64,000 nt of DNA from Spironucleus salmonicida (Eukaryota). This document shows, piece after piece, positions 29,341 through 60,452 of the stretch. Where the stretch lies: positions 744,001 through 808,000 of the forward strand of contig NC_090600.1 of NCBI RefSeq assembly GCF_000497125.1, written 5' to 3'. A model generated the notes under the pieces. That model worked only from the letters and a program-made list of their open reading frames with translations. It had not been told where the DNA came from and ran no database searches. The position numbers and the translations under genes were made by a program. Numbering within the stretch: position 1 is the first letter of the stretch; each line of letters begins with the position of its first letter.

Positions 29341-29763
29341 TCATCTCCGACCACCTACTAATAAATGAATAATTAATATAATGTTCAAGTATAAAAAACC
29401 ACTTGAATAAATAATTTAAAAATATGAGAATTAAGATTTCCTAATAATTCCTAAAAAACACTACATATACAAACTTACTAATAATGATATAAAGTATAAG
29501 TAGTTATCTCGAACGACACATGTTCCCAACCACCAGCAGTGATGATCAAACCCTTTTGTGCACATGTCGCAGTGGCGGCAGTGCACACCTAAGGGCTGGC
29601 TCAGGCATTGGGCTGAGCATGGGACTCTGTTGTCTTTAGCAATTTGCAAGATCTTCCAGATGGCGTAGGTAGCAGCCATAACTAACGGTATGGTGAACGG
29701 CTGGTTGTGCACGGATAGAATCTGTGCGAACAGAAGAGGACCAATGAGGTTGAACTGACGCAT
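29341..29763 (-). CDS. short DHHC palmitoyltransferase
   Basis: HCRHCDMCTKGFDHHCWWLGTCV DHHC-CRD motif. Confidence 0.85.
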
Positions 29764-31383
29764 TCTGGAGGAGTGTAGACTGTAGGGAGAATATACTTAT
29801 ATCTGACAGACACAGGTATAGTAACTACTCATTCACGGGAAATACTCCGCCCCAAACTCCTGCATCACCAGGAAGTTCTTCCGCAGCCCCTTTAGGCGGC
29901 TGACGATCTGGTTGTCCGTGCGCCCCTCCAGTAAGTCGGATATCTTTTTCCACGCACGGGGCTGGCAGCAGCGCATCGCGGCGACCAACTTCAGGTCCTC
30001 CTGGGCAGTCCACTTGCGGTTCGTCTTTTTCGGGTCTAGCACGCGCACCCAGTGCTGCACGATAGAGGGCATCTTGCGCTGCGCTCCCACAGTCTCGGCG
30101 TTGAATATCTGGGCAAGTTGTTTCCAGTTCTGGGGGCCGTACATTTGGATGAGTCTGACGAGCAGGTCGTCCTCGACCCTGGTCCATATGTTAGTAGAGC
30201 TCCTGCCCGCGCGCTTGGCTGGCTACGCCTCCAAGGCCGCTGGTTCGGGCTGAACGTCCACGCGGATGCTAGACCACTCTAGCGTATCATCGAGAAAGCT
30301 CTTGTACTGGGAAAGCGGAATCTCCAAAGTCGCATCAGGTAGCGCGCCGAGGCAGATTATATCGCTGTCTGAAACCAGGCTGAACATTGGGTGGAAAGGA
30401 TAATCGCAGAGATCACAATAAAGAGTGAGTTAGAGTAGATTATGTTTGTGGGTTTGTGGTTTAGTAAAAATAAAAGAAATGTAGTCGATAATGGGGTGCC
30501 TAATATACATGAATACTGCCTACCCTGGGGGCGAAATGGATAATATCGAACGTAAAAGCGATACGTCTCCGGATATGGTAACATTATTATATACTGATAT
30601 GCCGGTTTAACTTTGGGAATAGGAGTGGAAACAGTAAAATATACCAACGTACTTTTTGACGAATTATACTGAGTTTGATGAAGTTTCTAAAAGTTATTTA
30701 CAATCCGCTTAAGAATGTTTTGCGGTAACCTAATTATTATACTCCTACTTGCCCGTATTCGGCTTGCAGATTGACCAATTGGTCTACGGTTGCCCGATCC
30801 TCACGATTCTTAGTTCACCCTGAGACACGAAATCTCGAGTATTTACGTTCTACGCGCCCTAGTGAGACTGCCAGCGGGCTGCATCCGCCTTTGAGGTACG
30901 GGGCAGCATGACTCAGGATTCGCTGGTCGCATGCCTAGCTCTGTGCGGACGCCGAAATCATCCCAGCAGGGACAGGGTGTAATCCGACACAGCAACGCCA
31001 GGTGATTGTCGCAGGGTAAGCGCATCCTATGAATAGTCTCACTATCGCAGAGCGAAAGCACAGATACCCTGCTGCTGGTTGTTACGCATAAGTATGGAGG
31101 CAATACGACCTGGTGCCAGCTATCACCGAATAGATTGCCAGGCTCGCAGTGATCAAAGTTCCTTCAGAAGCTCAGTGTAGTCGTCCACGAGAAAATCGCA
31201 AATCTCCCTCTTCTAGTCCATCTGGTTCCTCTCGCTGAGGATCCCGATTACTCTGCCCCCGCTAGCTCTGGCCCCCTGCATGCCTGCCACGGTGTCCTCG
31301 AATACCACTGTCTCCTAGGGGTTCCCGCCGATCTGTCTCATACACTCCAAAAATACCTTGGGGCTAGGCTTGCTAGCACCTAC
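29543..31383 (+). repeat. direct segmental repeat D (copy 1; copy 2 at 52505-54345)
   Basis: Offset 22962; about 5 substitutions seen in ~1.84 kb. Confidence 0.95.
29833..30387 (-). CDS. R2R3 Myb-like DNA-binding protein (copy 1)
   Basis: WTRVEDDLL..YGPQNW; WTAQEDLKL..AWKKI..GRTDNQI. Confidence 0.9.
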
Positions 31384-31800
31384 TTCATCGCAAGTAACTA
31401 TTGTGACTTTTTCTTTAATGCTAGGAAATTGAGATATTATAGTATCTATAACAATTCTAGTAGTCGCAGTTGCAATTCCAAACTTTATATTCTTAGCTAT
31501 CAACTTTTCTATAAATTTATCTGCATTATGAATAAACTTAACATTCTTTAAATATGAAATGCTAATTTCAGCAAATTATTTAAAAACTTATTCTTTGGTT
31601 AGCGACAATTTATACTTTGAAATCAACAAATCACAAGCATCTAAAGCAGATAATCCTGGCATTCCAATAAAATGGAACTCTTTGTTATATTAAACGTTAA
31701 AAGATTTTACAAGTTCTTCATGAATAATATCCCAAGTGGCTAAAGAGTCGATCAAAGTTCCATCAAAATCAAAAACGTAATATTTTATATCTTCGAGCAT
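31153..31800 (-). CDS. HAD-superfamily phosphatase (paralogue 1)
   Basis: VFDFDGTLIDS, SKPSP, VFEDT..G motifs. Confidence 0.9.
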
Positions 31801-35352: not shown

Positions 35353-35904
35353 TCACTGGGTGCCCCTGTGGGAGACGTAGATACCGTCGAGGAACTTCCT
35401 GAGATCCTTGTGGCGGATCTTTACGGACTCGTGGATCTGGGCACAGAACATGGAGACGAGCTCCACGTCGTTACCGGTGATGATGAGCTCGTCCTTGATA
35501 TCCTTGGAGATTTCGATCTTGACACCAGGCTGGGCGGTGATCTTGCGGACCTCGGACTCACGAAGGAAGTTACGGATCTCGATGGTGGACGCGTTGTCGA
35601 CGATGTTGACGGAGATGGGGAAGTGGGCATAGGCAAGTCTCATCTTGTAGAGGTAGCCCTTGGTGACGCCGGTGATCAGGTTCTGGATGTGGGCAGTGAT
35701 GGTCCTGGGGAGGGACTTCTGCTGGCCCTTCGGGAACCAGACGGTGACGATGACTTCGGCGCCTACCATCTCAAGTTCGCAGGGGGTGTGGACGAAATCG
35801 CGGAAGAGGGTGCCGCGGGGACCGGTGATGGTCACCTTCTTGCCTACAAGCTCGCACTTGATGCCCTCGGGGATAGTGATAGTACAGACGTTCTTTAGTA
35901 CCAT
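35353..35904 (-). CDS. RPL9: 60S ribosomal protein L9 (uL6), copy 1
   Basis: YKMRLAYAHFPI, KDLRKFLDGIYVS; true start ATG GTA CTA. Confidence 0.95.
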   Translation of the reverse strand: MVLKNVCTITIPEGIKCELVGKKVTITGPRGTLFRDFVHTPCELEMVGAEVIVTVWFPKGQQKSLPRTITAHIQNLITGVTKGYLYKMRLAYAHFPISVNIVDNASTIEIRNFLRESEVRKITAQPGVKIEISKDIKDELIITGNDVELVSMFCAQIHESVKIRHKDLRKFLDGIYVSHRGTQ

Positions 35905-35997
35905 GACGAAGGAGTGGAAAATAAAAAGCAAAATAGGTGCGGTACTAAACAGCCAAGTTCGGAATTGAATTACCGGCCCCGCGCCTCCTGCCTGGGC

Positions 35998-36219
35998 TCA
36001 GGGCGGACGCTTTAGCAGGAGCGCTGCGAACTCCAAGCCGACGAGGTCCCCACCCCAGAGCAGCTCACCGTCGGCCGTTAGGTAGAACAGGGTGTTGTAC
36101 GGCAGGTAACCCACGTCGAACGTGAGGTCGCCGTACTCGTTGAGTGTGGACGGGGTGAGGTCGTGCGGGGTATGGATCTGGTACCGCTTGCCGAGCTGCT
36201 CGAACTGGATGGCGGCCAT
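35998..36219 (-). CDS. in-frame chimeric ORF: N-terminus of the 51276 gene fused to the C-terminus of the 36902 thioredoxin-like gene
   Basis: MAAIQFEQ...LTADGE|LLWGGDLVGLEFAALLLKRPP; junction at TGAG 36064-36067. Confidence 0.75.
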   Translation of the reverse strand: MAAIQFEQLGKRYQIHTPHDLTPSTLNEYGDLTFDVGYLPYNTLFYLTADGELLWGGDLVGLEFAALLLKRPP

Positions 36220-36271
36220 TCTGAAAATGCGGAGGAAAGTGACAGTCGCAAAAATGCGCAATCGTAAAACA

Positions 36272-36787
36272 TCACTGCATGAGCGTCCCCTTGCGCACAG
36301 CCTCGCCGTCGGCTCCGAGCTTGGTCGCGATCGCAACACCGAACTCGAGCGCGACGCCGGGGCCCTTGGCGCACACGTGCTTGTCGCCCACCACGACTCT
36401 GTCGTCCACGAAGGTGTTACCGGGGGCCTCACAACCGGGGTAGCCGCATACCTTGAGGCCCTTCCACACGCCCCACTTGGTGAGGACCTAGGGTGCCGCG
36501 CACATCGCGCAGACGAGCTTGCCCTTCTGGACGTAGGATTCCACGAGGGCCTTGACCTTCATATCGGCCTCGAGGTTGGCGAAGCCCATTCCGCCTGGAA
36601 TGATGATGGCGTCGGCGTCCACAACGGTGGTGCTGTCGGCGGTCATGATCATGCCCTGGTTACCGGTTACAGTCTTGGTGGTCGCGAAGAGGGTGACCTT
36701 CACGCCCGCGCGTCTGAGGATGTCGGCTGTACCGTAGGTCTCTATCTCCTCGCATCCCTCAAACATGTACAATAAGGCTGATGGCAT
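36272..36787 (-). CDS. DJ-1/PfpI/ThiJ family protein, copy 1
   Basis: EGCEEIE, DILRRAG, IIPGG, AMCAAPQ (TAG=Gln), GPG.A.EFG. Confidence 0.93.
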
Positions 36788-36901
36788 TTGTGGAGTGGCA
36801 GATTTATATCGTAGTAGTGGGGGCTAGAGCGGGGCCTCGGAAATCAAATCGTCGTACACCTCTGGGTATACGATGCGACTATATTCTACGCACCACTCCG
36901 A

Positions 36902-37297
36902 ATGGCAGTTCTCGAGGGGACATCCCTAGAATACCTCGGTCCGCCCCCGGAGGCCTTCGCGCCGCTGCTGGTCGTGCTCAGCTGCACCTTCGTGGCCGAC
37001 ACCCGCCTCCTTCCGCAGCGCCTGGCGGCCTTCCGCGCCCAGCACCCCGGCGTTGGCGTGCTATACCTGTTCCGGGAGCCCCGTTCGGCTGTGGAAACCG
37101 CCTTCCCCCGCCTCGACCTCTTTGGTGGTTCCTGCGTGGCCGTGGACCCGAGCAACACCGCCTTTGACGTCCTGCTCGGGCACACTGGGCAGCGACTGGT
37201 GCCGGCGTTTTGCCTCTTCGGCCGCACTGAGCTGCTCTGGGGTGGGGACCTCGTCGGCTTGGAGTTCGCAGCGCTCCTGCTAAAGCGTCCGCCCTGA
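36902..37297 (+). CDS. thioredoxin-fold (TlpA-like) protein lacking CxxC, copy 1
   Basis: Aligns by eye with the 43057 protein (VAVDPS, P.F.F, LLWGG/LIYSG); FVADT at the WCPPC position. Confidence 0.65.
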   Translation: MAVLEGTSLEYLGPPPEAFAPLLVVLSCTFVADTRLLPQRLAAFRAQHPGVGVLYLFREPRSAVETAFPRLDLFGGSCVAVDPSNTAFDVLLGHTGQRLVPAFCLFGRTELLWGGDLVGLEFAALLLKRPP

Positions 37298-37390
37298 GCC
37301 CAGGCAGGAGGCGCGGGGCCGGTAATTCAATTCCGAACTTGGCTGTTTAGTACCGCACCTATTTTGCTTTTTATTTTCCACTCCTTCGTC

Positions 37391-37942
37391 ATGGTACTAA
37401 AGAACGTCTGTACTATCACTATCCCCGAGGGCATCAAGTGCGAGCTTGTAGGCAAGAAGGTGACCATCACCGGTCCCCGCGGCACCCTCTTCCGCGATTT
37501 CGTCCACACCCCCTGCGAACTTGAGATGGTAGGCGCCGAAGTCATCGTCACCGTCTGGTTCCCGAAGGGCCAGCAGAAGTCCCTCCCCAGGACCATCACT
37601 GCCCACATCCAGAACCTGATCACCGGCGTCACCAAGGGCTACCTCTACAAGATGAGACTTGCCTATGCCCACTTCCCCATCTCCGTCAACATCGTCGACA
37701 ACGCGTCCACCATCGAGATCCGTAACTTCCTTCGTGAGTCCGAGGTCCGCAAGATCACCGCCCAGCCTGGTGTCAAGATCGAAATCTCCAAGGATATCAA
37801 GGACGAGCTCATCATCACCGGTAACGACGTGGAGCTCGTCTCCATGTTCTGTGCCCAGATCCACGAGTCCGTAAAGATCCGCCACAAGGATCTCAGGAAG
37901 TTCCTCGACGGTATCTACGTCTCCCACAGGGGCACCCAGTGA
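37391..37942 (+). CDS. RPL9: 60S ribosomal protein L9 (uL6), copy 2
   Basis: Identical to copy 1; TTTTCCACTCC at 37374-37384 upstream. Confidence 0.95.
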   Translation: MVLKNVCTITIPEGIKCELVGKKVTITGPRGTLFRDFVHTPCELEMVGAEVIVTVWFPKGQQKSLPRTITAHIQNLITGVTKGYLYKMRLAYAHFPISVNIVDNASTIEIRNFLRESEVRKITAQPGVKIEISKDIKDELIITGNDVELVSMFCAQIHESVKIRHKDLRKFLDGIYVSHRGTQ

Positions 37943-37962
37943 GTTTTATTTAACCGCTCCGC

Positions 37963-38463
37963 TCACTTGAAGATCCAATCTATGTTCTCGTCCGGAATGA
38001 AGTCCTCTTTGTCGTCGTTGAACTGGAACTGCGGGTCGTCCCTACCCTGCCTCGTGCTCCGCCTTCCCTTCAGCGAGTCCTGCCGGATCTGGTCCCAGTT
38101 CTTCATCTCGCATTTCGCCGACTCCGTGTGGCGCAGCGGCTTCTGCGACTTCTTCGTCGGCACCGACGCCATGCCGTCCAGCTCCCTCTGGAAGACGATT
38201 TGGTCATGGATGTTCTGGGAAAACTTTTGGATGTCGCTCTGGCTCTCGACAGTGTCATTCCCGGTATCGAAACTCTGAACGGTCATCTTCGGGGTCCGCG
38301 CTGACTGGTGATTCTGCGGCCTGAGCCGGTTTTTCATGCGCGTCGTATCCCGCGATACCAGGGACACGGACTCGGGTGCCACCACCGGAACTGGCCCCAC
38401 GGCGCGGAGCACTAGCGACTTAAACTAGTAAGTTTCATTTTGTAAGGCTTGTTATATGAACAT
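37963..38463 (-). CDS. hypothetical protein Z, variant with diverged N-terminus
   Basis: MFIQQALQNETYQF|KSLVLRAVG..., identical to the 49020 gene from KSLV onward. Confidence 0.6.
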
Positions 38464-38603
38464 TGTATATAATTATACTTCATTTGTCTCGTTTCCTAAA
38501 CAAATGATATTTTGTTAATTAATTTATTAAATAATATAATAATTTATTTAATTTTGATTATTAATAATAGATATTATAACTATTTGAAATAAATATAAAA
38601 TAA

Positions 38604-39920: not shown

Positions 39921-40397
39921 TCATGGAAATTTATTCTAGTCCAGTGCATCTGTTGAATATTTTAATTATTTTAGCCTTTTAATTACCTCATTAGAGGTTC
40001 GGTTGATTTTAAGTCCTATTTTACGCCATTATCTTGCGGGGGTAGAGTTAACAGCATTTATAAGTTGAGCATCATCTTCTTTAAGCCAAACTTTACAATG
40101 TTATACGTTTAGCACTCTTTAATAATGTTAATATAAAGATACTTTTTACCTTTGTCTTTTACTAACACTATTAAACTTATTAGTTATCTTAACCCAGTTT
40201 AGAAGCTACTAATTAATGTTTGATGAATTAATAATTGATTTCAACAATAATGACTCTTATTAACTGAATATATTATATTATGATTTACCCGGTGTCTTAG
40301 GATTATGATAGTCATTTATCTAAGAAGACTAAGATAACTCCTCCGAATGAGCTTAAGGTTGAGCTAGTTATTCTGAATCTGAACAATGAGAAAACAT
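39921..40397 (-). CDS. Myb-like DNA-binding protein (divergent)
   Basis: NWVKI..QHYQRVL..WLKEDDAQL..QWRKIG..RTSNEV; ends KFP. Confidence 0.8.
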
Positions 40398-40452
40398 AAT
40401 TGGTTTTTATTGTAGATAGTACTATATATAATAATATATATATAACTTAAAA

Positions 40453-40651: not shown

Positions 40652-41107
40652 TCAGGGGAAATAATCTCTATCAATATTAATCCATTTTTTGTTATTTTTC
40701 AAGACCTTAAGTCTGTTTATAATTTAATTATCTGTTCTACCCTCTAACTGTTTAGCCATATATTTCCACTATCTCCTAGGACTTTTTAATAATACGTTAA
40801 TTAACAAATTATCCTCATCACCTGACCATTTTCTCTGAGTTTTTTCTGGAGTTAAAACTCGGACCCAATGCTAAACAATGCTCGCCTGACCTCTTTACCG
40901 ATAATTTAATTGATTGAATTTTTATGAGATAAAACTCCAATTTTTGGCTCCATACTCTAAGATAAGAGTACTTAGTAAACTGTTCTCTTATTCGCACCAA
41001 ATATTTGATTTCGTTCTACCTTAAGGTGGTTGATTTATCTATAATTAAACTTAATAAATCAATGCTAAGATTTACTATTGTTGTATCAAGAAATCGTCCA
41101 ACAACAT
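40652..41107 (-). CDS. R2R3 Myb-like DNA-binding protein
   Basis: YGAKNW, SIVQHWVRVL, RKWSGDED, EGRTDNQI; ends YFP like the 29833 gene. Confidence 0.88.
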
Positions 41108-41830
41108 TTTTTTCCCAAAAAAGATAAAATAAATATTGTGATATTTATATACTTCAGTGAGTTAGCCGTTGATATATTGTATTTAAAAATAATACAACAG
41201 AACTTACATTTATTATAATAATTTTAGAATTATCAAAAAATTTAAAAATTTAAGATTTATGGCATTAATTATGCTGAAATATAGAATAAATCGACCTATG
41301 GAAATTTTCAATTTCCTTTGTTTTAGAGTACTATTATTATCGTATAGAATTATAAGTTTGTATTAAATTTCCTTGATAGCGATATCATGTTAAAATAATT
41401 ATAAACATATTTCAGATCAATAATTGATCAGATAATTTTATAATAGCTACTAATGTAAAAACAATAGAACTAATATGAAAATTGTAGTATCTTATGATAT
41501 AGTATAATATAAAAATCAGAATATATTTAACAGAATAATATATACTCTAATATGTTAATACGTAACTAAGCCGATGTATGAAACGAATTCCCCATAAATT
41601 GTAACTATTATACACACTATAAGCCTTTATATAATTTTGCTAACTAAATTTTAAATACTGCTATCTCGGTAAAAAATTTATTAAATTTGATTAGAAGCAT
41701 TATTTCCCGGTGACTGTTATTCAATAGTATTTTTCTATATATTAATTATATATATCAAAATATATGTTTCTAATATGATTATAAAATATATAATAATATA
41801 TTTTTAACTTTCCACTCTAAAAAAGCATAA

Positions 41831-46401: not shown

Positions 46402-46860
46402 TCACTTAACCACATCTAGCTTCGTCAGCCTATACCTAATCTGGGTGTCGGTCCTTCCACCGACCTCGTTGGCGATCAGCTTCCACTTCTGACCGTACTT
46501 TTCGTACGCCTGGATCAACTTCTTGTCCTCGTCCTTGGTCCACCTCCCCTTCTTGAGCCCTTACTTGAGCACACGGAAATACCGCTGGTAGTACTGGCTC
46601 GTGCGGATGCTGAGTGCGAACGTTTGGTTGAGGACCGCCGTGATCTCAACCCAGCTCTGCTTCTCGTGGACCTGCGCGAGCTCCAGGAGCATGGAGTCGA
46701 TCTTGGAGTTGAACACGTACTGCCTGACGGACTTCGCCGAGTGCTACTTGTGCATCGACAGGATAGAGATGTCCGAGAGCCGGGACAGGTGGTCGTCGTT
46801 GAACTGCTCGTTGGGGTCCACCGAAATGAACGAGGTCACGATGTTGAACGAGTACTCCAT
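46402..46860 (-). CDS. Myb-like DNA-binding protein (second subtype, copy 1)
   Basis: KKGRWTKDEDKKLIQAYEKYGQKWKLIANEVGGRTDTQIRYR. Confidence 0.9.
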
Positions 46861-47186
46861 TTTCTACGAATTGGAAACTCGGACCCTAATAGAACCAGTA
46901 TTCTGGCTATATTCCACGTTTCACTTTGTAGATATCATTATTATGCATATTACAATACAGTGTATACTTTGACTGGTATTTTTTAAACCGGATTATTTCG
47001 TATACCTGGTGGTTTATATTCGCTCTCAATTGTATATTTCCAGTCCCGCCCCTTGGGTATTGTTTCGGGTATCACGTCGTTTAATTGTATACCTTCGCTC
47101 GGCCACGATACACTCGTGCAGCGGCGTCTGACGTGTGGACCTGGCCGCAAGGTTTCCGGGCCCATTTGCTTTCCGCTCCGCTCCGA

Positions 47187-48107
47187 ATGGCAACCTGCGC
47201 CCTCTGCGACCAGTTCGACTCCTTCTCGGAGTTCCCGGTCCTGAACCAACTGTACCAGGGCCTGGTGGACCAGCTAGAGCAGAAGAGCTTTGTGCCCTAC
47301 GACTTCGCGGGGGTGTACCTGCAGTTCTTCGCGCAGGCGCTCGGCCAGTACCAGTGCGCGCAGCCCCTGTGCCTCTACAGCTTCCTGCTCGAGGCGGCGT
47401 GCATGCTCCAGCAGATCCTCCCGACCAACCGGCTGATCTCCAACATCACCCGCCGCGTCAACGCCTCGCTGTACGACGCCGTGCAGAACCCGGACAGCTT
47501 CAAGTGCGACTTCCTGCTCCAGACGAGTTTGAGCCAGCAGAAGCCCCGGCAGCTATCCAGGCCCATCGTGGACCAGGCGGTGTCCCACGCGCGGTACCAG
47601 CTGCAGGCCTCCGCGATAGACGCCCAGCAAGCGGGGCAGGCGCTGGTACAGCTGCTCACCGGTGTGAGGTGCACCATGGTGGTGGGCAATAGCCCCGCGG
47701 TGCTGCAGGCCGCCAGTCAGTGCGACCTCGTGTTCGTCCTCCGCTGCAACGAGGACATTACGGCGTCGGCGGTCACATACCTGGGCCAGCTGGGGGCGAA
47801 GGCAGTGCCCGTCGAGCTCGATATGATACCCCACCTGGCCGGGCGTTGCTTTGGGCTGATCTCGGCCCCGCGCTTCGTGTTCCGGAACGGCAGCTGCGTG
47901 ACCGACGCCGGTACCGGGGCGGCCTGCGAACTCTTTCGGACCATGGCGAGGAAGGTCATCTTCGTGATCGAGGCGGGTCAGGTCAGTGAGGAGGAGGGCA
48001 GCCGCGACACGTTCGGCCCGGACTGGGTGGACGCGGCCAACATCGACTACTACGTGTGCGCGAAGGGACTGGTGGCGCCCAGACAGGTATTCTCGGCGTG
48101 CGAGTGA
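47187..48107 (+). CDS. eIF2B beta-like subunit (IF-2B family), copy 1
   Basis: ISNITRRV, VFRNGS...GT, DWVDAANIDYYV..G.VAP resemble eIF2B-beta; ATG 47187. Confidence 0.65.
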   Translation: MATCALCDQFDSFSEFPVLNQLYQGLVDQLEQKSFVPYDFAGVYLQFFAQALGQYQCAQPLCLYSFLLEAACMLQQILPTNRLISNITRRVNASLYDAVQNPDSFKCDFLLQTSLSQQKPRQLSRPIVDQAVSHARYQLQASAIDAQQAGQALVQLLTGVRCTMVVGNSPAVLQAASQCDLVFVLRCNEDITASAVTYLGQLGAKAVPVELDMIPHLAGRCFGLISAPRFVFRNGSCVTDAGTGAACELFRTMARKVIFVIEAGQVSEEEGSRDTFGPDWVDAANIDYYVCAKGLVAPRQVFSACE

Positions 48108-48618
48108 GGACGTTTGCCAAGATTCTAGCGTGCTCGACCGGATGCTCTGCCCAAGCTTCCCAAGAGCAGATCGAGCCCGAAGTTGCTTCTAGAGGGAAAC
48201 CGCGCAATAGGAGAGCTTGTCTCCCCTGGGCAAGGCCTTGACCGGCAGTCTAAGCAGTATATTCCGCACGCCAGCTTCCAAACCCTGGGCGCACGCGATC
48301 ACCGCAGCCATGGCTAATACCATAGACCAATTGAGAAATCCACCTAAATTAATAGAAAAACCACAATTTCCATTTAAAACAACCCAAGCAATATCTATCC
48401 ATACTCCCTGCCGATCGCCATTTCTCAAAACTCTCACTAACGTGATATTCATAAAATTTGTAAAATAAAAACTAAATAATTTTTTAATAAAAAGTTATTA
48501 TTATATATTATTAATATATAATTTATTTTTATTCATTATTATACATATTCCATATAATAAACCAATTTGGCTAAAACGCGTATTTTTACATTTTCACCAC
48601 AGCAAACCCAAACTCAAG

Positions 48619-49019: not shown

Positions 49020-49532
49020 ATGAAGCTCAATCCTACAATTTATCGAGGCACCTACCACGAGACATACGGCCCGAAGTCGCTAGTGCTCCGCGCCGTGGGG
49101 CCAGTTCCGGTGGTGGCACCCGAGTCCGTGTCCCTGGTATCGCGGGATACGACGCGCATGAAAAACCGGCTCAGGCCGCAGAATCACCAGTCAGCGCGGA
49201 CCCCGAAGATGACCGTTCAGAGTTTCGATACCGGGAATGACACTGTCGAGAGCCAGAGCGACATCCAAAAGTTTTCCCAGAACATCCATGACCAAATCGT
49301 CTTCCAGAGGGAGCTGGACGGCATGGCGTCGGTGCCGACGAAGAAGTCGCAGAAGCCGCTGCGCCACACGGAGTCGGCGAAATGCGAGATGAAGAACTGG
49401 GACCAGATCCGGCAGGACTCGCTGAAGGGAAGGCGGAGCACGAGGCAGGGTAGGGACGACCCGCAGTTCCAGTTCAACGACGACAAAGAGGACTTCATTC
49501 CGGACGAGAACATAGATTGGATCTTCAAGTGA
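49020..49532 (+). CDS. hypothetical protein Z (170 aa)
   Basis: ATG..AAGTGA; GC3-rich coding pattern. Confidence 0.75.
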   Translation: MKLNPTIYRGTYHETYGPKSLVLRAVGPVPVVAPESVSLVSRDTTRMKNRLRPQNHQSARTPKMTVQSFDTGNDTVESQSDIQKFSQNIHDQIVFQRELDGMASVPTKKSQKPLRHTESAKCEMKNWDQIRQDSLKGRRSTRQGRDDPQFQFNDDKEDFIPDENIDWIFK

Positions 49533-49552
49533 GCGGAGCGGTTAAATAAAAC

Positions 49553-50104
49553 TCACTGGGTGCCCCTGTGGGAGACGTAGATACCGTCGAGGAACTTCCT
49601 GAGATCCTTGTGGCGGATCTTTACGGACTCGTGGATCTGGGCACAGAACATGGAGACGAGCTCCACGTCGTTACCGGTGATGATGAGCTCGTCCTTGATA
49701 TCCTTGGAGATTTCGATCTTGACACCAGGCTGGGCGGTGATCTTGCGGACCTCGGACTCACGAAGGAAGTTACGGATCTCGATGGTGGACGCGTTGTCGA
49801 CGATGTTGACGGAGATGGGGAAGTGGGCATAGGCAAGTCTCATCTTGTAGAGGTAGCCCTTGGTGACGCCGGTGATCAGGTTCTGGATGTGGGCAGTGAT
49901 GGTCCTGGGGAGGGACTTCTGCTGGCCCTTCGGGAACCAGACGGTGACGATGACTTCGGCGCCTACCATCTCAAGTTCGCAGGGGGTGTGGACGAAATCG
50001 CGGAAGAGGGTGCCGCGGGGACCGGTGATGGTCACCTTCTTGCCTACAAGCTCGCACTTGATGCCCTCGGGGATAGTGATAGTACAGACGTTCTTTAGTA
50101 CCAT
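49553..50104 (-). CDS. RPL9: 60S ribosomal protein L9 (uL6), copy 3
   Basis: Identical to copies 1 and 2. Confidence 0.95.
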   Translation of the reverse strand: MVLKNVCTITIPEGIKCELVGKKVTITGPRGTLFRDFVHTPCELEMVGAEVIVTVWFPKGQQKSLPRTITAHIQNLITGVTKGYLYKMRLAYAHFPISVNIVDNASTIEIRNFLRESEVRKITAQPGVKIEISKDIKDELIITGNDVELVSMFCAQIHESVKIRHKDLRKFLDGIYVSHRGTQ

Positions 50105-50197
50105 GACGAAGGAGTGGAAAATAAAAAGCAAAATAGGTGCGGTACTAAACAGCCAAGTTCGGAATTGAATTACCGGCCCCGCGCCTCCTGCCTGGGC

Positions 50198-50593
50198 TCA
50201 GGGCGGACGCTTTAGCAGGAGCGCTGCGAACTCCAAGCCGACGAGGTCCCCACCCCAGAGCAGCTCAGTGCGGCCGAAGAGGCAAAACGCCGGCACCAGT
50301 CGCTGCCCAGTGTGCCCGAGCAGGACGTCAAAGGCGGTGTTGCTCGGGTCCACGGCCACGCAGGAACCACCAAAGAGGTCGAGGCGGGGGAAGGCGGTTT
50401 CCACAGCCGAACGGGGCTCCCGGAACAGGTATAGCACGCCAACGCCGGGGTGCTGGGCGCGGAAGGCCGCCAGGCGCTGCGGAAGGAGGCGGGTGTCGGC
50501 CACGAAGGTGCAGCTGAGCACGACCAGCAGCGGCGCGAAGGCCTCCGGGGGCGGACCGAGGTATTCTAGGGATGTCCCCTCGAGAACTGCCAT
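50198..50593 (-). CDS. thioredoxin-fold protein lacking CxxC, copy 2
   Basis: Identical to the 36902 gene. Confidence 0.65.
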   Translation of the reverse strand: MAVLEGTSLEYLGPPPEAFAPLLVVLSCTFVADTRLLPQRLAAFRAQHPGVGVLYLFREPRSAVETAFPRLDLFGGSCVAVDPSNTAFDVLLGHTGQRLVPAFCLFGRTELLWGGDLVGLEFAALLLKRPP

Positions 50594-50707
50594 TCGGAGT
50601 GGTGCGTAGAATATAGTCGCATCGTATACCCAGAGGTGTACGACGATTTGATTTCCGAGGCCCCGCTCTAGCCCCCACTACTACGATATAAATCTGCCAC
50701 TCCACAA

Positions 50708-51223
50708 ATGCCATCAGCCTTATTGTACATGTTTGAGGGATGCGAGGAGATAGAGACCTACGGTACAGCCGACATCCTCAGACGCGCGGGCGTGAAGGTC
50801 ACCCTCTTCGCGACCACCAAGACTGTAACCGGTAACCAGGGCATGATCATGACCGCCGACAGCACCACCGTTGTGGACGCCGACGCCATCATCATTCCAG
50901 GCGGAATGGGCTTCGCCAACCTCGAGGCCGATATGAAGGCCAAGGCCCTCGTGGAATCCTACGTCCAGAAGGGCAAGCTCGTCTGCGCGATGTGCGCGGC
51001 ACCCTAGGTCCTCACCAAGTGGGGCGTGTGGAAGGGCCTCAAGGTATGCGGCTACCCCGGTTGTGAGGCCCCCGGTAACACCTTCGTGGACGACAGAGTC
51101 GTGGTGGGCGACAAGCACGTGTGCGCCAAGGGCCCCGGCGTCGCGCTCGAGTTCGGTGTTGCGATCGCGACCAAGCTCGGAGCCGACGGCGAGGCTGTGC
51201 GCAAGGGGACGCTCATGCAGTGA
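50708..51223 (+). CDS. DJ-1/PfpI/ThiJ family protein, copy 2
   Basis: As copy 1, with one V/A difference. Confidence 0.93.
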
Positions 51224-51275
51224 TGTTTTACGATTGCGCATTTTTGCGACTGTCACTTTCCTCCGCATTTTCAGA

Positions 51276-51812
51276 ATGGCCGCCATCCAGTTCGAGCAGC
51301 TCGGCAAGCGGTACCAGATCCATACCCCGCACGACCTCACCCCGTCCACACTCAACGAGTACGGCGACCTCACGTTCGACGTGGGTTACCTGCCGTACAA
51401 CACCCTGTTCTACCTAACGGCCGACGGTGAGAGGCTGCAGGCCTTCAAAACCATAACCAACGCGTACTTCAGCGTGCGCTTCGAACTTTCCAATGGGGAC
51501 TACCACATAGACGACCACCGTGTCGTGCAGCTCGAGCCGTTCCACATGCGCCTGGAGGTCGAGCTGAGCGGCCAACGGCACCTGATCACTGACAGCACAT
51601 CTTTCCCGGTAACTCTGAACCAGATGTTCGAGGTATGCGAGGGCGATACTATCGACGTCTTTGTCAACAGCCACAAGGCCTGCAGCGTTCCCAGCCGTAT
51701 CTCTACCCTCACGGAGCTTACCTTCAGTGTCTTCGCACAGGACGGGCGTATCCATATCTCGGTTGACAAGGACGGCATTCCGCAGGCGGGAGGTGCCGTG
51801 CCTGTTGAGTGA
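51276..51812 (+). CDS. hypothetical protein Y (178 aa), intact parent of the chimera
   Basis: MAAIQFEQLGKRY...PVE; GAGTGA end. Confidence 0.75.
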   Translation: MAAIQFEQLGKRYQIHTPHDLTPSTLNEYGDLTFDVGYLPYNTLFYLTADGERLQAFKTITNAYFSVRFELSNGDYHIDDHRVVQLEPFHMRLEVELSGQRHLITDSTSFPVTLNQMFEVCEGDTIDVFVNSHKACSVPSRISTLTELTFSVFAQDGRIHISVDKDGIPQAGGAVPVE

Positions 51813-51951
51813 CGGCTAGGCATGCATCTATGTATTTCACTATAAAAACAGAAACCAAACTATTTATTAATTTATCTTATTAATGATATTATGAATTTAT
51901 TATAAATTATATTTATTAAATTATAATATAAATTGATTTATTTTTAATATA

Positions 51952-52368
51952 ATGCAGATAATAGCGCCAACAAAATTGTTCATTAAAACGTTAAAGAATC
52001 TTAACAATTTGTTAAACACTAAGTAATCCTCAATTATGTTATCAAGAACGTAACAAAATAGTTTTAAATAAGAAATATAAAAAGCAATTTTTGATTCATA
52101 ATCTCCTAAAATTATTATTACAACATGTTTGCAACTAGATATTGAATAAATTTATAGTATAATAGGTCCAATCAATGTGATTTAGGCAGAGGAATTAGTC
52201 CTAACGATAGATTAAATTTTATATAATTTACTTCCAAAATCTGATAATAAACTAGATCATGATAATCAAATTTCTGCAATTGAAAAAGAAATTATGGGAA
52301 AATAATAACAAATTGCAGTATTGAAAGCTGAGAAACTACGTTTGCAGATTACCAATAGTAATCAGTGA
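51952..52368 (+). CDS. hypothetical protein with C-terminal coiled coil
   Basis: 138-aa open frame; CAGTGA end. Confidence 0.6.
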
Positions 52369-52399
52369 AAGTAATTTCCTTTTTATATTATCTAAATTA

Positions 52400-52725
52400 T
52401 TAATTAAAAATAACTACATATAACATAAATAGATATATAAAATAATTCTTGATAAATTGTTAAAAAAAATTATGAGTGAAAAATTTTCTAGATGCAGACA
52501 TTGGTGATCAAACCCTTTTGTGCACATGTCGCAGTGGCGGCAGTGCACACCTAAGGGCTGGCTCAGGCATTGGGCTGAGCATGGGACTCTGTTGTCTTTA
52601 GCAATTTGCAAGATCTTCCAGATGGCGTAGGTAGCAGCCATAACTAACGGTATGGTGAACGGCTGGTTGTGCACGGATAGAATCTGTGCGAACAGAAGAG
52701 GACCAATGAGGTTGAACTGACGCAT
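52400..52725 (-). pseudogene. degenerate DHHC paralogue (DHQC, decayed 3' half)
   Basis: Identical 5' half; DHHCWWLG becomes DHQCLHLE; remnant YMQ.FL; no TGA until inside the opposite-strand 51952 gene. Confidence 0.65.
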
Positions 52726-54345
52726 TCTGGAGGAGTGTAGACTGTAGGGAGAATATACTTATATCTGACAGACACAGGTATAGTAACTACTCATTCACGG
52801 GAAATACTCCGCCCCAAACTCCTGCATCACCAGGAAGTTCTTCCGCAGCCCCTTTAGGCGGCTGACGATCTGGTTGTCCGTGCGCCCCTCCAGTAAGTCG
52901 GATATCTTTTTCCACGCACGGGGCTGGCAGCAGCGCATCGCGGCGACCAACTTCAGGTCCTCCTGGGCAGTCCACTTGCGGTTCGTCTTTTTCGGGTCTA
53001 GCACGCGCACCCAGTGCTGCACGATAGAGGGCATCTTGCGCTGCGCTCCCACAGTCTCGGCGTTGAATATCTGGGCAAGTTGTTTCCAGTTCTGGGGGCC
53101 GTACATTTGGATGAGTCTGACGAGCAGGTCGTCCTCGACCCTGGTCCATATGTTAGTAGAGCTCCTGCCCGCGCGCTTGGCTGGCTACGCCTCCAAGGCC
53201 GCTGGTTCGGGCTGAACGTCCACGCGGATGCTAGACCACTCTAGCGTATCATCGAGAAAGCTCTTGTACTGGGAAAGCGGAATCTCCAAAGTCGCATCAG
53301 GTAGCGCGCCGAGGCAGATTATATCGCTGTCTGAAACCAGGCTGAACATTGGGTGGAAAGGCTAATCGCAGAGATTACAATAAAGAGTGAGTTAGAGTAG
53401 ATTATGTTTGTTGGTTTGTGGTTTAGTAAAAATAAAAGAAATGTAGTCGATAATGGGGTGCCTAATATACATGAATACTGCCTACCCTGGGGGCGAAATG
53501 GATAATATCGAACGTAAAAGCGATACGTCTCCGGATATGGTAACATTATTATATACTGATATGCCGGTTTAACTTTGGGAATAGGAGTGGAAACAGTAAA
53601 ATATACCAACGTACTTTTTGACGAATTATACTGAGTTTGATGAAGTTTCTAAAAGTTATTTACAATCCGCTTAAGAATGTTTTGCGGTAACCTAATTATT
53701 ATACTCCTACTTGCCCGTATTCGGCTTGCAGATTGACCAATTGGTCTACGGTTGCCCGATCCTCACGATTCTTAGTTCACCCTGAGACACGAAATCTCGA
53801 GTATTTAAGTTCTACGCGCCCTAGTGAGACTGCCAGCGGGCTGCATCCGCCTTTGAGGTACGGGGCAGCATGACTCAGGATTCGCTGGTCGCATGCCTAG
53901 CTCTGTGCGGACGCCGAAATCATCCCAGCAGGGACAGGGTGTAATCCGACACAGCAACGCCAGGTGATTGTCGCAGGGTAAGCGCATCCTATGAATAGTC
54001 TCACTATCGCAGAGCGAAAGCACAGATACCCTGCTGCTGGTTGTTACGCATAAGTATGGAGGCAATACGACCTGGTGCCAGCTATCACCGAATAGATTGC
54101 CAGGCTCGCAGTGATCAAAGTTCCTTCAGAAGCTCAGTGTAGTCGTCCACGAGAAAATCGCAAATCTCCCTCTTCTAGTCCATCTGGTTCCTCTCGCTGA
54201 GGATCCCGATTACTCTGCCCCCGCTAGCTCTGGCCCCCTGCATGCCTGCCACGGTGTCCTCGAATACCACTGTCTCCTAGGGGTTCCCACCGATCTGTCT
54301 CATACACTCCAAAAATACCTTGGGGCTAGGCTTGCTAGCACCTAC
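52505..54345 (+). repeat. direct segmental repeat D' (copy 2)
   Basis: Matches 29543-31383. Confidence 0.95.
52795..53349 (-). CDS. R2R3 Myb-like DNA-binding protein (copy 2)
   Basis: Identical to 29833-30387. Confidence 0.9.
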
Positions 54346-54762
54346 ATCTTCGCAAGTAACTATAGTGATATTCTAGCGTATATCAGGATAGCGGCTTAAA
54401 AATGACTCTATTACTGCATGAGGACAAGCTGTGGCTAACCCAACTGGAATTTTCTTTTCTATTAACATTCTAAGAAAATTATCACCATTATTTATAAACT
54501 CTACCTATTAAAACAACTTAATACAATTTGAAATAAATATATCTTTGACTTCTTCCACGCTAGCTGTAAGATTATACTTTGTAATAATAAATTTAGAACA
54601 ATCTGGTGTTGACAATCCCTAAATATTATCTAAATGTTGTTTTTCAAGGTAAGGTATATTATAATTTTCAAATACCATACCGTGTACTTTTTCCCAAACT
54701 GGTATTGAGTTGATAAGTGTGCCATCAAAATCAAAAACAAAATATTTCATATCTTCAAGCAT
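54115..54762 (-). CDS. HAD-superfamily phosphatase (paralogue 2)
   Basis: MLEDMKYFVFDFDGTLINS; C-terminal third identical to paralogue 1. Confidence 0.9.
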
Positions 54763-55794: not shown

Positions 55795-56258
55795 TGTTGG
55801 CTCATTTATAAATATTATCTATATTTTTGAGATTAAACAGTAGACTAGATTTAAGATTCCGCTAATTTATGTACATACAGTTAATAATTATTATTAAAGG
55901 AATTACTATGGTATTAATTTACTTTAAATATAATGGGTGTGCATATATATTAATTTTTTATATTCATGAATTGTTTAATAATAATTTTCTAAAGTTGAAT
56001 TACAGTCATAGAATTTTACAGAATATCCTTGTAATTGATATAGGCCATATAACCATGGCTGCGGTGATCGCGTGCGCCCAGGGTTTGGAAGCTGGCGTGC
56101 GGAATATACTGCTTAGACTGCCGGTCAAGGCCTTGCCCAGGGGAGACAAGCTCTCCTATTGCGCGGTTTCCCTCTAGAAGCAACTTCGGGCTCGATCTGC
56201 TCTTGGGAAGCTTGGGCAGAGCATCCGGTCGAGCACGCTAGAATCTTGGCAAACGTCC

Positions 56259-57179
56259 TCACTCGCACGCCGAGAATACCTGTCTGGGCGCCACCAGTCC
56301 CTTCGCGCACACGTAGTAGTCGATGTTGGCCGCGTCCACCCAGTCCGGGCCGAACGTGTCGCGGCTGCCCTCCTCCTCACTGACCTGACCCGCCTCGATC
56401 ACGAAGATGACCTTCCTCGCCATGGTCCGAAAGAGTTCGCAGGCCGCCCCGGTACCGGCGTCGGTCACGCAGCTGCCGTTCCGGAACACGAAGCGCGGGG
56501 CCGAGATCAGCCCAAAGCAACGCCCGGCCAGGTGGGGTATCATATCGAGCTCGACGGGCACTGCCTTCGCCCCCAGCTGGCCCAGGTATGTGACCGCCGA
56601 CGCCGTAATGTCCTCGTTGCAGCGGAGGACGAACACGAGGTCGCACTGACTGGCGGCCTGCAGCACCGCGGGGCTATTGCCCACCACCATGGTGCACCTC
56701 ACACCGGTGAGCAGCTGTACCAGCGCCTGCCCCGCTTGCTGGGCGTCTATCGCGGAGGCCTGCAGCTGGTACCGCGCGTGGGACACCGCCTGGTCCACGA
56801 TGGGCCTGGATAGCTGCCGGGGCTTCTGCTGGCTCAAACTCGTCTGGAGCAGGAAGTCGCACTTGAAGCTGTCCGGGTTCTGCACGGCGTCGTACAGCGA
56901 GGCGTTGACGCGGCGGGTGATGTTGGAGATCAGCCGGTTGGTCGGGAGGATCTGCTGGAGCATGCACGCCGCCTCGAGCAGGAAGCTGTAGAGGCACAGG
57001 GGCTGCGCGCACTGGTACTGGCCGAGCGCCTGCGCGAAGAACTGCAGGTACACCCCCGCGAAGTCGTAGGGCACAAAGCTCTTCTGCTCTAGCTGGTCCA
57101 CCAGGCCCTGGTACAGTTGGTTCAGGACCGGGAACTCCGAGAAGGAGTCGAACTGGTCGCAGAGGGCGCAGGTTGCCAT
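56259..57179 (-). CDS. eIF2B beta-like subunit, copy 2
   Basis: Identical to the 47187 gene. Confidence 0.65.
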   Translation of the reverse strand: MATCALCDQFDSFSEFPVLNQLYQGLVDQLEQKSFVPYDFAGVYLQFFAQALGQYQCAQPLCLYSFLLEAACMLQQILPTNRLISNITRRVNASLYDAVQNPDSFKCDFLLQTSLSQQKPRQLSRPIVDQAVSHARYQLQASAIDAQQAGQALVQLLTGVRCTMVVGNSPAVLQAASQCDLVFVLRCNEDITASAVTYLGQLGAKAVPVELDMIPHLAGRCFGLISAPRFVFRNGSCVTDAGTGAACELFRTMARKVIFVIEAGQVSEEEGSRDTFGPDWVDAANIDYYVCAKGLVAPRQVFSACE

Positions 57180-57505
57180 TCGGAGCGGAGCGGAAAGCAA
57201 ATGGGCCCGGAAACCTTGCGGCCAGGTCCACACGTCAGACGCCGCTGCACGAGTGTATCGTGGCCGAGCGAAGGTATACAATTAAACGACGTGATACCCG
57301 AAACAATACCCAAGGGGCGGGACTGGAAATATACAATTGAGAGCGAATATAAACCACCAGGTATACGAAATAATCCGGTTTAAAAAATACCAGTCAAAGT
57401 ATACACTGTATTGTAATATGCATAATAATGATATCTACAAAGTGAAACGTGGAATATAGCCAGAATACTGGTTCTATTAGGGTCCGAGTTTCCAATTCGT
57501 AGAAA

Positions 57506-57964
57506 ATGGAGTACTCGTTCAACATCGTGACCTCGTTCATTTCGGTGGACCCCAACGAGCAGTTCAACGACGACCACCTGTCCCGGCTCTCGGACATCTC
57601 TATCCTGTCGATGCACAAGTAGCACTCGGCGAAGTCCGTCAGGCAGTACGTGTTCAACTCCAAGATCGACTCCATGCTCCTGGAGCTCGCGCAGGTCCAC
57701 GAGAAGCAGAGCTGGGTTGAGATCACGGCGGTCCTCAACCAAACGTTCGCACTCAGCATCCGCACGAGCCAGTACTACCAGCGGTATTTCCGTGTGCTCA
57801 AGTAAGGGCTCAAGAAGGGGAGGTGGACCAAGGACGAGGACAAGAAGTTGATCCAGGCGTACGAAAAGTACGGTCAGAAGTGGAAGCTGATCGCCAACGA
57901 GGTCGGTGGAAGGACCGACACCCAGATTAGGTATAGGCTGACGAAGCTAGATGTGGTTAAGTGA
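57506..57964 (+). CDS. Myb-like DNA-binding protein (second subtype, copy 2)
   Basis: Identical to the 46402 gene. Confidence 0.9.
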
Positions 57965-58871
57965 GCTAGCTCATATTTTTTTCGGTTCACACGGCGGGAA
58001 GCTGTGCCGCACAGAAGGTCGCAGCAGAGGATGCTGGTTAACCCAACCTCGGAGGGGCTGATGGCGACCGCCATCGTAGTTGCTCGGCCAGCATCTCCAG
58101 CCGCAGAAGGTGGGAGCTGTGCGGTCAGTCCAATTGAACCCCTAGAATCGCGCCGGTATTAACTTGACAATTATGCGAATAAGACAAAGCATGGCTGCCG
58201 GTGTGCAGAATGGGCGTTCGAAAGCCAGGAGACGGGAAACCAATACGGCGGTTGGTGCAATGCTCGAGGGTGAGCGGCATACTCTCTTTCAAGATATCGG
58301 TATTTTATCGTGGGTAGCACAATGTACCAGTCGTGGGCAGGGCCAGAAGTTCAGGGAGGTGACATTTTACGTTCCAGTATTAATTTTTCAAATTATATTA
58401 TAAACTAATACTGGAGTCCATGCAGGTGGATGGGGGATTGCGAGCCACCTGGCGGTATGCCTGCTCTCAGTGATAGTCGGGATTATAAAACATAAAATAA
58501 TATTTATATATTAAAATAGTTATTTAGTAATTGTTCAACTCTATTTCATAAGCCATACTGGATAATAGTATTTAAAAATAACACATAAAAATAAATCTAC
58601 AATTTGGTAGAATTATTTAATTTAATAATAAAACTATATACGAAAAAGATAGTTTTATATTTTTGAAAACTTCCTTTATTATGCTATATGATACTTATAT
58701 AACCATTTAAAATGGTTATACTATTGTATTTATTTAACTTTTAATCATTTATTTATAGTATTCTCGTAAAATAAATAGAACATGTAAATTTAGTATAAAC
58801 TGTATAAAAATCTATTTAATAAAAGTTTCATATACACGTAACAATTTACATTTATATAATTATCTGTAAAA

Positions 58872-60452
58872 ATGTTACTATTAAGTTTATCTTTGAATTG
58901 TTTTTCCTACAATTCAACTCTTACTTTCTCTGAAGTATCAGGTTATGCATTTGTGTCGTTATTTACTAGAAATTTTGATCTCGATTAAGAGACATAAAGC
59001 ATCTGTAATAAATATCAATAATTATAAACTCAAATGGTTATTAGTTTAGGTACTAACACACTACAGTCAACCAATATTTTCTTTGATTTCACTCATAATT
59101 AGACTATTAAACTAACATGTATAGAATCGACAGATTTATGTATTGCAGAAATGAAAACATTAACAAACCTTAAATACTCATTCGTGTTTAATTAGATCAG
59201 CTCTGAGTTTTCTTCAACTGTTTCCACTCTAAGCATGGAATTTTATAATCATGAGTAGTGTTTTTCAGAAGTCTACATTGTTCCGGATCTAGTTTAAGGA
59301 GTTTACACTATTACATTTCCAAAAGCGTATTTATGCAGATTCGAATAAGTAGACGTAGATATTTAGATGCATATTTATCCAGATCTCGTCTGGACTCATA
59401 GGATCAAAAATTACAATCAGTCTCTTGTATAATATTAAGGATTAGCTGTTGAGTGCATTGACTAATCATATTCCTATGAAAAATGCATTGCTGATGTTTA
59501 TAGCGTTTATTTCGAGGCTTTCTTTACAGGTTTTATCAGACTAGTGACCTACAACGAAGTTGATCCTGATAATACCAACCCAAACCTGAAACCGTATGAA
59601 ACTATTATTTAGCAGGAAATTCAAGGCATCCGGGCGATATCATATAAAAATTTTTACAAAGAGCTCATTGTTAATTTTTAAGGGGACAAAATCCACTTTA
59701 CTACAACTCTCCTAAATGCGTCAGCCTTCAACACTACAGAGCAAGCCTTTGTAACATTATGTGTTTAAGAATCCAAAAATTTTACAGAAGGCAGGACCTG
59801 GGTTTTTGAGCAATAGATGCTACTGTTTGATTTTTATTAGCCAGAATTCTGGATTGATTGCACAAATGCTTCGAATGTTACAGAATGTAAAGAAGATATT
59901 GTTTATTTAGAGTATTATGGTTAAGAATTTACCTACAATCTGCAAGTTGCCTTTATGTATTATAACTTCTCCCTTATGGAAATTTATTTTGACCGTGCAG
60001 TATATGTAGCAGCATGTATAAACTCAGCAAACATTTTAAGAAAAGATAATTAATTTTGTGTTACAGTAAATTACTTAAATGGTTGTGATCCAGGACCGGT
60101 TATTTAGATTCCTATAAGCCTTTTCATATCGAACGATGCAGCGGAATAATATAATATCACATTATAAACAGGTTAGTTTTTCTAAAACTCGTTGGAAATT
60201 ATGTTTCCAAAGCCATTTTGTTACCCACCAGATATACTTAAAGTCTCATTTAATAATGCAACCTGGGGAATGCTGAATTTTGCTGGTACTCAGATTCCTA
60301 TAATTAGATTTAGTGTAGAGAGAACAAACGTGGTATAAATAGAAGGAATTTCCTGCATCCTTATTACCGTATTCCTTGCATTTGGAGGTTATTTCATATC
60401 ATTGAACGCAGGGCCAGGCCGCCATGTTAAGCCAGTTCTAATTGAAGAGTGA
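58872..60452 (+). CDS. type-I membrane/surface protein, paralogue 2
   Basis: MLLLSLSLNCFSYNSTL...; TM ISCILITVFLAFGGYFI. Confidence 0.8.

Follow-up and report, generated by a model that had tools for sequence, protein, structure and literature searches.

Near-Identical Tracts inside Old, Rearranged Gene Duplicates of Spironucleus salmonicida: Probable Ectopic Gene Conversion and a Possible Link to GC-Rich Islands

We analyzed a stretch of 64,000 nucleotides from the genome of Spironucleus salmonicida (assembly GCF_000497125.1, contig NC_090600.1, positions 744,001 to 808,000 of the forward strand). This whole stretch is called the window in the following, and all coordinates are positions in it. 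Two loci, at approximately 29.3–48.3 kb and 48.7–60.5 kb, share four near-identical tracts (A to D) and the gene for the ribosomal protein RPL9, which is present in a third copy. In a gene pair for a HAD-family hydrolase and in a gene pair for a surface-type membrane protein the identity ends inside the gene, and the homologous flanks continue with saturated silent sites. This pattern is probably best explained by ectopic gene conversion between the halves of a duplication that is old and has been rearranged.

Identity Tracts and Layout of the Two Loci

The tracts were compared using a repeat finder, self-BLAST, gapped alignment and a listing of mismatches. An earlier note on this DNA had described four near-identical blocks. 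Self-BLAST and gapped alignments reproduced their coordinates exactly to the base (Table 1), and all peptide strings quoted in the note were present. Identity between the tract copies ranges from 99.73 to 100%. Divergence does not exceed 0.3% in any of the five tracts, that is, A, B, C, D and the third RPL9 copy. The edges are very sharp: immediately outside the identity 24 of 45 positions differ at tract C and 17 of 29 at tract B.

The blocks are arranged in the order A, third RPL9 copy, B, C, D in locus 1 and in the order B', A, D', C' in locus 2. Tract A is a direct repeat. The arms of B and D lie 10.7 kb and 7.7 kb apart, respectively, and both pairs are interleaved with other blocks. Tracts C and D are adjacent in both loci in the same order and the same orientation, with spacers of 579 and 626 bp that are unalignable with each other. 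Since the C-D neighborhood was kept across this unalignable spacer, tract D would also lie inside an old duplicated segment. An all-against-all search of the translated open reading frames (ORFs) for more old paralogous segments between the loci revealed links within the Myb family only.

Homology beyond the Identity Edges

The flank pairs were scored against shuffled sequences (300 nucleotide and 1000 protein shuffles). Significant, diverged homology past the identity was found at three of the eight tract ends, namely, the HAD end of tract A and both ends of tract C. The protein identity of these continuing flanks is 41–69%. At the HAD end the nucleotide comparison gave z = 23.8 (0/300 shuffles reached the score) and the protein comparison z = 51 (0/1000). 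The part of HAD that lies outside the tract, 139 N-terminal codons, gave an ungapped alignment with identities of 57.8% in nucleotides and 41% in protein, and both copies encode 215 amino acids, in agreement with the equal length claimed before. Both flanks of the surface protein are likewise ungapped and in frame (z = 48 to 118). The gene Z end of tract B was marginal, with z = 3.7 at the nucleotide level (0/300) and z = 1.1 at the protein level (149/1000 shuffles); the resemblance does not go beyond approximately 12 codons adjacent to the start codon. The flanks at the DHHC end of tract A scored at chance level (nucleotide z = 0.4, 100/300; protein z = 0.4, 339/1000). The peptide pair YMQCFL/YMQLFL, which had been cited as flank homology of the DHHC genes, was rejected because it is at chance level in these tests. 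For the left end of B, the right end of D and the spacer between C and D the shuffle tests showed no significant flank homology. Colinear flanks were accordingly observed on both sides of C, on one side of A and marginally on one side of B; for D they are supported only via its synteny with C.

Outside the tract the HAD genes have a synonymous divergence (dS) of 1.48 and a nonsynonymous divergence (dN) of 0.50. In the surface protein genes the proportion of synonymous differences (pS) is 0.77 in the N-terminal and 0.97 in the C-terminal flank (dS not computable in either), with a dN of 0.22 in each. Inside the tracts dS is 0–0.02 and dN is approximately zero. Nucleotide identity in these two gene pairs is 100% in the tract versus 58–68% in the flanks. 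The longest identical run was compared with 10000 permutations in which the observed mismatches were placed at random. It measures 771 nt in the surface protein pair (maximum of the permutations 74 nt) and 171 nt in the HAD pair (maximum 46 nt), and no permutation reached the observed value. Since the tract identity extends to the silent sites, selection at the protein level is excluded as its cause. To replace a part of an old paralogue in frame and without gaps would require homology-guided copying, either by gene conversion or by a double exchange of equivalent effect.

The earlier note had claimed that homology carries on past the identity in three of the four blocks and that the blocks are ancient duplicates with ectopic conversion. 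Both parts hold for HAD and for the surface protein, where saturated flanks adjoin tracts with a dS of 0–0.02. Continuing homology is marginal for gene Z and absent for DHHC, and the left junction of B, the DHHC end and the right end of D do not bear out conversion of ancient duplicates. The comparison of identity and dS across each pair, which the note had proposed, likewise gave saturated flanks at HAD and at the surface protein, whereas the other ends apart from the marginal gene Z lacked a significant alignment.

GC-Rich Islands and GC3 Steps

The GC content of tracts A, B and D is 0.51, 0.60 and 0.57, respectively, versus 0.17–0.30 in the surrounding DNA. The third RPL9 copy is also GC-rich, so that these four tracts together span 0.51–0.60. 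In both copies the GC content shifts no farther than one 60-base bin from where the identity ends. Of 17 boundary positions, 11 had a GC step that belonged to the top 5% of all window positions. The six boundaries without such a step were the four ends of C and the pair formed by the left end of B copy 1 and the right end of B copy 2, which is GC-rich on both sides.

The same change was observed inside genes in the GC content of third codon positions (GC3). In both HAD copies GC3 is 0.71 in the tract versus 0.22 outside (Fisher p = 4e-12), and in DHHC copy 1 it is 0.58 versus 0.27. For the eight in-tract gene parts GC3 ranged from 0.58 to 0.91, compared to 0.21–0.67 for 14 genes without a duplicate in the window (Mann-Whitney p = 3.6e-4).

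The surface protein genes behave differently. Their C-terminal flank (43955-44525) has a GC3 of 0.53–0.67 in copy 1 versus 0.20–0.33 in copy 2, and the third-position differences of copy 1 from copy 2 are mostly C for T and G for A. The composition of tract C is like that of copy 2 and unlike that of the GC-richer C-terminal flank of copy 1. Tract C looks like the result of a single recent event with copy 2 as the donor and copy 1 as the recipient. A third partner, located elsewhere in the genome and not in the window, may be the reason why GC3 is raised in the C-terminal flank of copy 1.

Large GC3 swings were also observed in ORF858 and in a cysteine-rich membrane protein (5270-7843 and 18126-20039, resp.), both without a duplicate in the window. 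Along ORF858 GC3 passes from 0.1 to 0.8 and back to 0.2, and along the cysteine-rich membrane protein it falls from 0.6–0.7 to 0.2–0.3.

Rearrangement Junction and RPL9 Inverted Repeat

At the left end of tract B in locus 1 the sequence switches to the inverted RPL9 copy across a 4-base overlap (36064-36067). This junction truncates ORF178 after 52 codons in locus 1; in locus 2 the ORF is whole. RPL9 and its upstream DNA form a perfect inverted repeat (35353-36067 and 37228-37942) with 715-bp arms and a spacer of approximately 1.16 kb, which encloses DJ-1 and ORF131. One more identical copy lies at approximately 49553-50267. Microhomology together with unrelated flanks, the hallmark of template switching or end joining, was found only where the third RPL9 copy meets tract B copy 1, and it leaves the HAD and C ends unexplained. 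The shape of a palindrome, with inverted arms, a short spacer and more than 99.9% identity, is shown by the RPL9 pair only and not by tracts A, B and D.

Genes in and across the Tracts

Intact conserved domains are obtained only when TAA and TAG are read as glutamine; the ORF of a kinase alone contains 33 such codons. The standard genetic code was rejected on these grounds. Between 27 and 64 kb, 131 ORFs of at least 100 amino acids were found under translation Table 6 versus 28 under the standard code. The features of the two loci are listed in Table 1.

Table 1: Identity tracts and genes of the two loci.
Feature	Position	Strand or orientation	Remarks
Tract A copy 1	29543-31383	direct repeat of 52505-54345	5 mismatches/1841; GC 0.51; 5' part of DHHC, Myb gene, 3' part of HAD
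Tract A copy 2	52505-54345	direct repeat of copy 1	
Third RPL9 copy with 163 bp upstream DNA	35353-36067	inverted	0 mismatches/715 versus both other copies
Tract B copy 1	36064-38421	inverted repeat of 49074-51431	1 mismatch/2358, at 36555; GC 0.60
Tract B copy 2	49074-51431	inverted repeat of copy 1	
Tract C copy 1	44526-45296	inverted repeat of 59117-59887	0 mismatches/771; GC 0.34, no GC step
Tract C copy 2	59117-59887		inside surface protein copy 2
Tract D copy 1	45876-48313	inverted repeat of 56053-58490	0 mismatches/2438; GC 0.57
Tract D copy 2	56053-58490	inverted repeat of copy 1	
DHHC palmitoyltransferase copy 1	29344-29832	-	163 aa, intact; Pfam DHHC E = 1.5e-13, residues 69-151
DHHC copy 2	52099-52794	-	first 96 codons as copy 1, then DHQC and unrelated AT-rich tail
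Myb-domain gene, tract A copy 1	29836-30909	-	ORF of 358 aa; Myb repeats at residues 242-340
Myb-domain gene, tract A copy 2	52798-53871		
HAD-family hydrolase copy 1	31156-31800	-	215 aa; codons 140-215 in tract, 1-139 outside
HAD-family hydrolase copy 2	54118-54762	-	215 aa; same pattern inside and outside tract
ORF178 start, tract B copy 1	36064-36219	-	first 52 codons only
DJ-1/PfpI, tract B copy 1	36275-36787	-	Pfam
ORF131, tract B copy 1	36902-37297	+	coding-like GC by codon position
RPL9, tract B copy 1	37391-37939	+	Pfam
Gene Z copy 1	37966-38463	-	no Pfam family
Gene Z copy 2	49020-49529	+	
RPL9, tract B copy 2	49556-50104	-	
ORF131, tract B copy 2	50201-50593	-	
DJ-1, tract B copy 2	50708-51220	+	
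ORF178 copy 2	51276-51809	+	intact, extends beyond tract
Surface-type membrane protein copy 1	43955-45541	-	529 aa; signal-like N-terminus, C-terminal hydrophobic segment
Surface-type membrane protein copy 2	58872-60449	+	AT-rich throughout
Myb gene, tract D copy 1	46405-46860	-	
Myb gene, tract D copy 2	57506-57961	+	
306-aa gene, tract D copy 1	47187-48104	+	
306-aa gene, tract D copy 2	56262-57179	-	identical to copy 1

In DHHC copy 1 the tract edge lies at codon 97, within the DHHC motif, and the Pfam domain spans the edge. No Pfam match was obtained for copy 2, which is probably a truncated copy; with DHQC as its motif it is probably not functional. Its tail (52099-52504) is open only since the AT-rich DNA contains no TGA under this code. 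The five mismatches of tract A are at 30400, 30414, 30450, 30846 and 31327; four of them fall into the N-terminal part of the Myb ORF, a part which may be noncoding. The closest named relatives of the HAD protein are from Hexamita inflata (39% identity) and Spironucleus salmonicida (34%). These are too distant for dating the HAD duplication against other species. Together with the genetic code and the RPL9 match given below, they fit a hexamitid diplomonad.

No Pfam family was found for ORF178 and ORF131, and ORF178 gave no credible match to a solved structure. Among solved structures, RPL9 is matched best by chain H of 7pwg, the Giardia ribosome. In the protein database RPL9 had 299 matches at E ≤ 1e-30; in the 120 of these that were listed, the cluster of the window's own protein was followed by a 70% match, and none of the 120 carried the name of a diplomonad. 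Tract C covers approximately codons 83–339 of surface protein copy 1. The only relative of this protein in the protein database, one match among 2828 candidates, was its own record. For the 306-aa gene neither a Pfam match nor a sequence match to a solved structure was found. A comparison with eIF2B alpha (IF-2B family) in Atlas gave a template modeling (TM) score of 0.79–0.80 for the predicted structure and a feature score of 0.89, and the putative assignment as eIF2B-alpha-like is a lead only. An RNA gene such as ribosomal RNA was rejected as the basis of the GC-rich blocks; Rfam and tRNA scans gave a single tRNA-Arg (13921-13993).

Some further features of the window were noticed. Six Myb-domain genes lie within approximately 30 kb, the four listed in Table 1 and two others at 39924-40397 and 40655-41209. 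The Myb protein of tract A shares 49.6% of its residues with the one encoded at 40691-41020, and the cluster looks like an old local gene family. An imperfect TAT microsatellite of approximately 100 units (74% matches) occupies positions 3166-3455 and weakly matches 26612-26729. A C-terminal fragment of an iron-only hydrogenase, consisting of the large-subunit C-terminal domain and the small-subunit domain, was found at positions 93-677.

Origin of the Tracts

The following course of events would account for the two loci. Several gene groups would have been duplicated long ago, namely, DHHC-Myb-HAD, ORF178-DJ-1-ORF131-RPL9-gene Z, and surface protein-Myb-eIF2B-alpha-like. After the duplication the loci would have been reshuffled, and most of the duplicated DNA would have diverged to saturation or past recognition. 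In four stretches one copy would have replaced the other by gene conversion, in the form of ectopic (non-allelic) homologous recombination. At A, B and D the same stretches would have been exchanged repeatedly, staying identical while their GC3 rose to 0.6–0.9. Sequence that leaves the exchange would decay to the AT-rich background and become too different to re-enter, so that the edges stay sharp. Later rearrangements, and not conversion, would have set some of the tract ends, namely, the one at which the inverted RPL9 copy cuts ORF178 short and the one at which DHHC copy 2 is broken off.

Conversion at A, B and D was probably recurrent and GC-biased. Recurrence is indirectly supported because one recent event does not predict GC islands that are bounded by identity edges, whereas repeated GC-biased exchange over a fixed stretch would account for a change of composition exactly at the edge of the copy. 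In addition, near-zero divergence in five tracts beside saturated flanks fits better with a steady, frequent process than with independent rare events. The recurrent conversion proposed in the earlier note can thus probably be maintained for A, B and D on the strength of the GC islands, and not for C.

Several observations weigh against ectopic conversion as the general explanation. Significantly homologous flanks were found at only three of the eight ends, with one more marginal, and for tract B conversion is demonstrated at neither end. It is unexplained how conversion started between cores that were presumably approximately 65% identical. Tract C has no GC enrichment, its GC3 being 0.33. 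Genes that are GC-rich, or in which GC3 changes along the length, are also found where the window shows no duplicate (ThiF, ORF836, ORF662, ORF858 and the cysteine-rich protein). GC richness is not tied to visible duplicates, and gene content or expression could be partly responsible for it. Finally, the tracts are almost wholly coding and their noncoding GC content is poorly sampled.

Some of these points can be read in favor of one or a few very recent conversions without long-term concerted evolution. The GC content would then come from the nature of the tract genes, such as the ribosomal protein, DJ-1 and the eIF2B-like gene, or from a pre-existing regional composition. The very sharp edges of C and B, the near-zero divergence in every tract, the lacking GC signal in tract C and the GC-rich genes without a visible duplicate all agree with this explanation. 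It does not account for the GC3 steps exactly at the identity edge in both HAD copies and in DHHC copy 1, as one-off copying has no reason to stop where the composition of the donor shifts, and it requires five tracts to be recent by coincidence. Moreover, homologous recombination is not expected between sequences of approximately 60% identity. We consider this explanation unlikely.

Replicative template switching or end joining offers a different route, by which GC-rich gene cassettes would have been pasted recently into AT-rich DNA and any resemblance of the flanks would be incidental. This agrees with the scrambled block order (A-B-C-D versus B'-A-D'-C'), with the mere four common bases at the junction of the third RPL9 copy and tract B copy 1, and with unrelated flanks at four ends (left ends of A, B and the third RPL9 copy, right end of D) besides the marginal one. 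The in-frame, ungapped flanks with 41–69% protein identity at HAD and both ends of C are unexplained by it, however, so that it is already refuted for the right end of A and for C, and it does not explain why D stands beside the surface protein paralogue in both loci. As an account of the whole region it appears quite improbable. Less probable still is an artefact of assembly or polishing, in which copies that truly differ were made identical by consensus; the correctness of the assembly is an assumption of this analysis. Short-read polishing could erase small differences, and the S. salmonicida assembly is described as polished with Quiver and then Pilon (PMC9509377). At most, polishing removes a few single-base differences and cannot make tracts. 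Identity falls from 100% to approximately 60% or to unalignable sequence within a few bases, a divergence at which reads cannot cross-map; the tracts of 0.7–2.4 kb are far below typical long-read length; and five differences survive in tract A and one in tract B.

Relation to Known Systems

It is textbook knowledge that paralogues can convert one another in part and evolve in concert. The classic case of interlocus conversion and concerted evolution in a small gene family is the human gamma-globin pair. Ectopic conversion in the present loci would resemble it in the near-identical tracts of 0.8–2.4 kb within older paralogues, in the homogenized silent and noncoding sites and in the edges inside genes. 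Here, however, the tracts are interleaved in scrambled loci, some ends are breakpoints of rearrangements, and the flanks are saturated and not moderately diverged. GC-biased conversion in paralogues is known from the mammalian histone and Hsp70 families. The converted stretches are GC-rich there compared to the unconverted parts of the same gene, as are the putatively converted stretches here (GC3 0.6–0.9) except for tract C, which lacks the enrichment. In the palindromes of the human Y chromosome conversion proceeds from arm to arm. Inverted repeats with 99.96–100% identity are also present here, in the form of tracts B and D and of the RPL9 pair, but the widely spaced arms of B and D are interleaved, A is direct, and the RPL9 pair alone has a palindromic shape.

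The mosaics of the trypanosome variant surface glycoproteins (VSGs) arise by segmental conversion among surface-antigen genes. Segmental conversion is also described among the variant-specific surface proteins (VSPs) of Giardia (PMC7641422). Tract C resembles both systems as a segment apparently copied between diverged genes for surface-type membrane proteins, with the difference that only two copies and no evident silent archive are present here.

For S. salmonicida itself, self-matches with a minimum length of 2 kb and a minimum identity of 95% were reported to make up 19.2% of the genome. Such matches are mostly one gene long, with a mean GC content of 44.7% compared to 30.7% elsewhere, and the authors raised gene conversion for the cysteine-rich surface proteins (PMC9509377). 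The GC content of the genome was given as 36.2% in coding and 25.4% in intergenic DNA (PMC3916229). The many short, near-identical, mostly single-gene duplications with raised GC content in the former paper are like those described here, whereas identity that ends within genes beside diverged paralogous flanks, and GC3 steps, are not described in the portions of that paper considered. Judged by titles and the openings of abstracts, searches of the literature on gene conversion in S. salmonicida and on GC-biased gene conversion and Giardia gave no report of identity edges inside genes with GC3 steps in diplomonads, and the latter search gave none on diplomonad paralogues.

Significance

The region adds a further case to a known process, and the proposed link to GC-biased conversion can be tested. 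The new element is that the GC-rich islands A, B and D have edges that match the identity edges, even inside single genes. The window offers a compact example of partial conversion between old diplomonad paralogues in which the edges are resolved to single bases. That identity edge and GC3 step coincide points to a possible mechanism for the published, unexplained GC-rich duplications of S. salmonicida, and this can be tested genome-wide from the assembly alone. Trees of paralogues and divergence dates derived from such genes mislead unless the tracts are masked, and measures of codon usage in these genomes may reflect the history of recombination and not expression.

As a tentative and rather doubtful extension, the GC content could be the direct footprint of ongoing non-allelic recombination, with each sharp GC3 step marking an exchange edge that has an identical partner elsewhere. 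This would include steps inside genes that appear to be single-copy in the window; candidates are ORF858, the gene for the cysteine-rich protein and, in surface protein copy 1, the C-terminal part. The earlier note had placed the conversion in a supposedly asexual parasite. The bearing on diplomonad sex is only indirect, because ectopic conversion can be mitotic and mitotic repair gives the same outcome. If the footprint reading were true, homologous recombination would be very active in a lineage usually treated as asexual, and base composition would be a map of concerted evolution.

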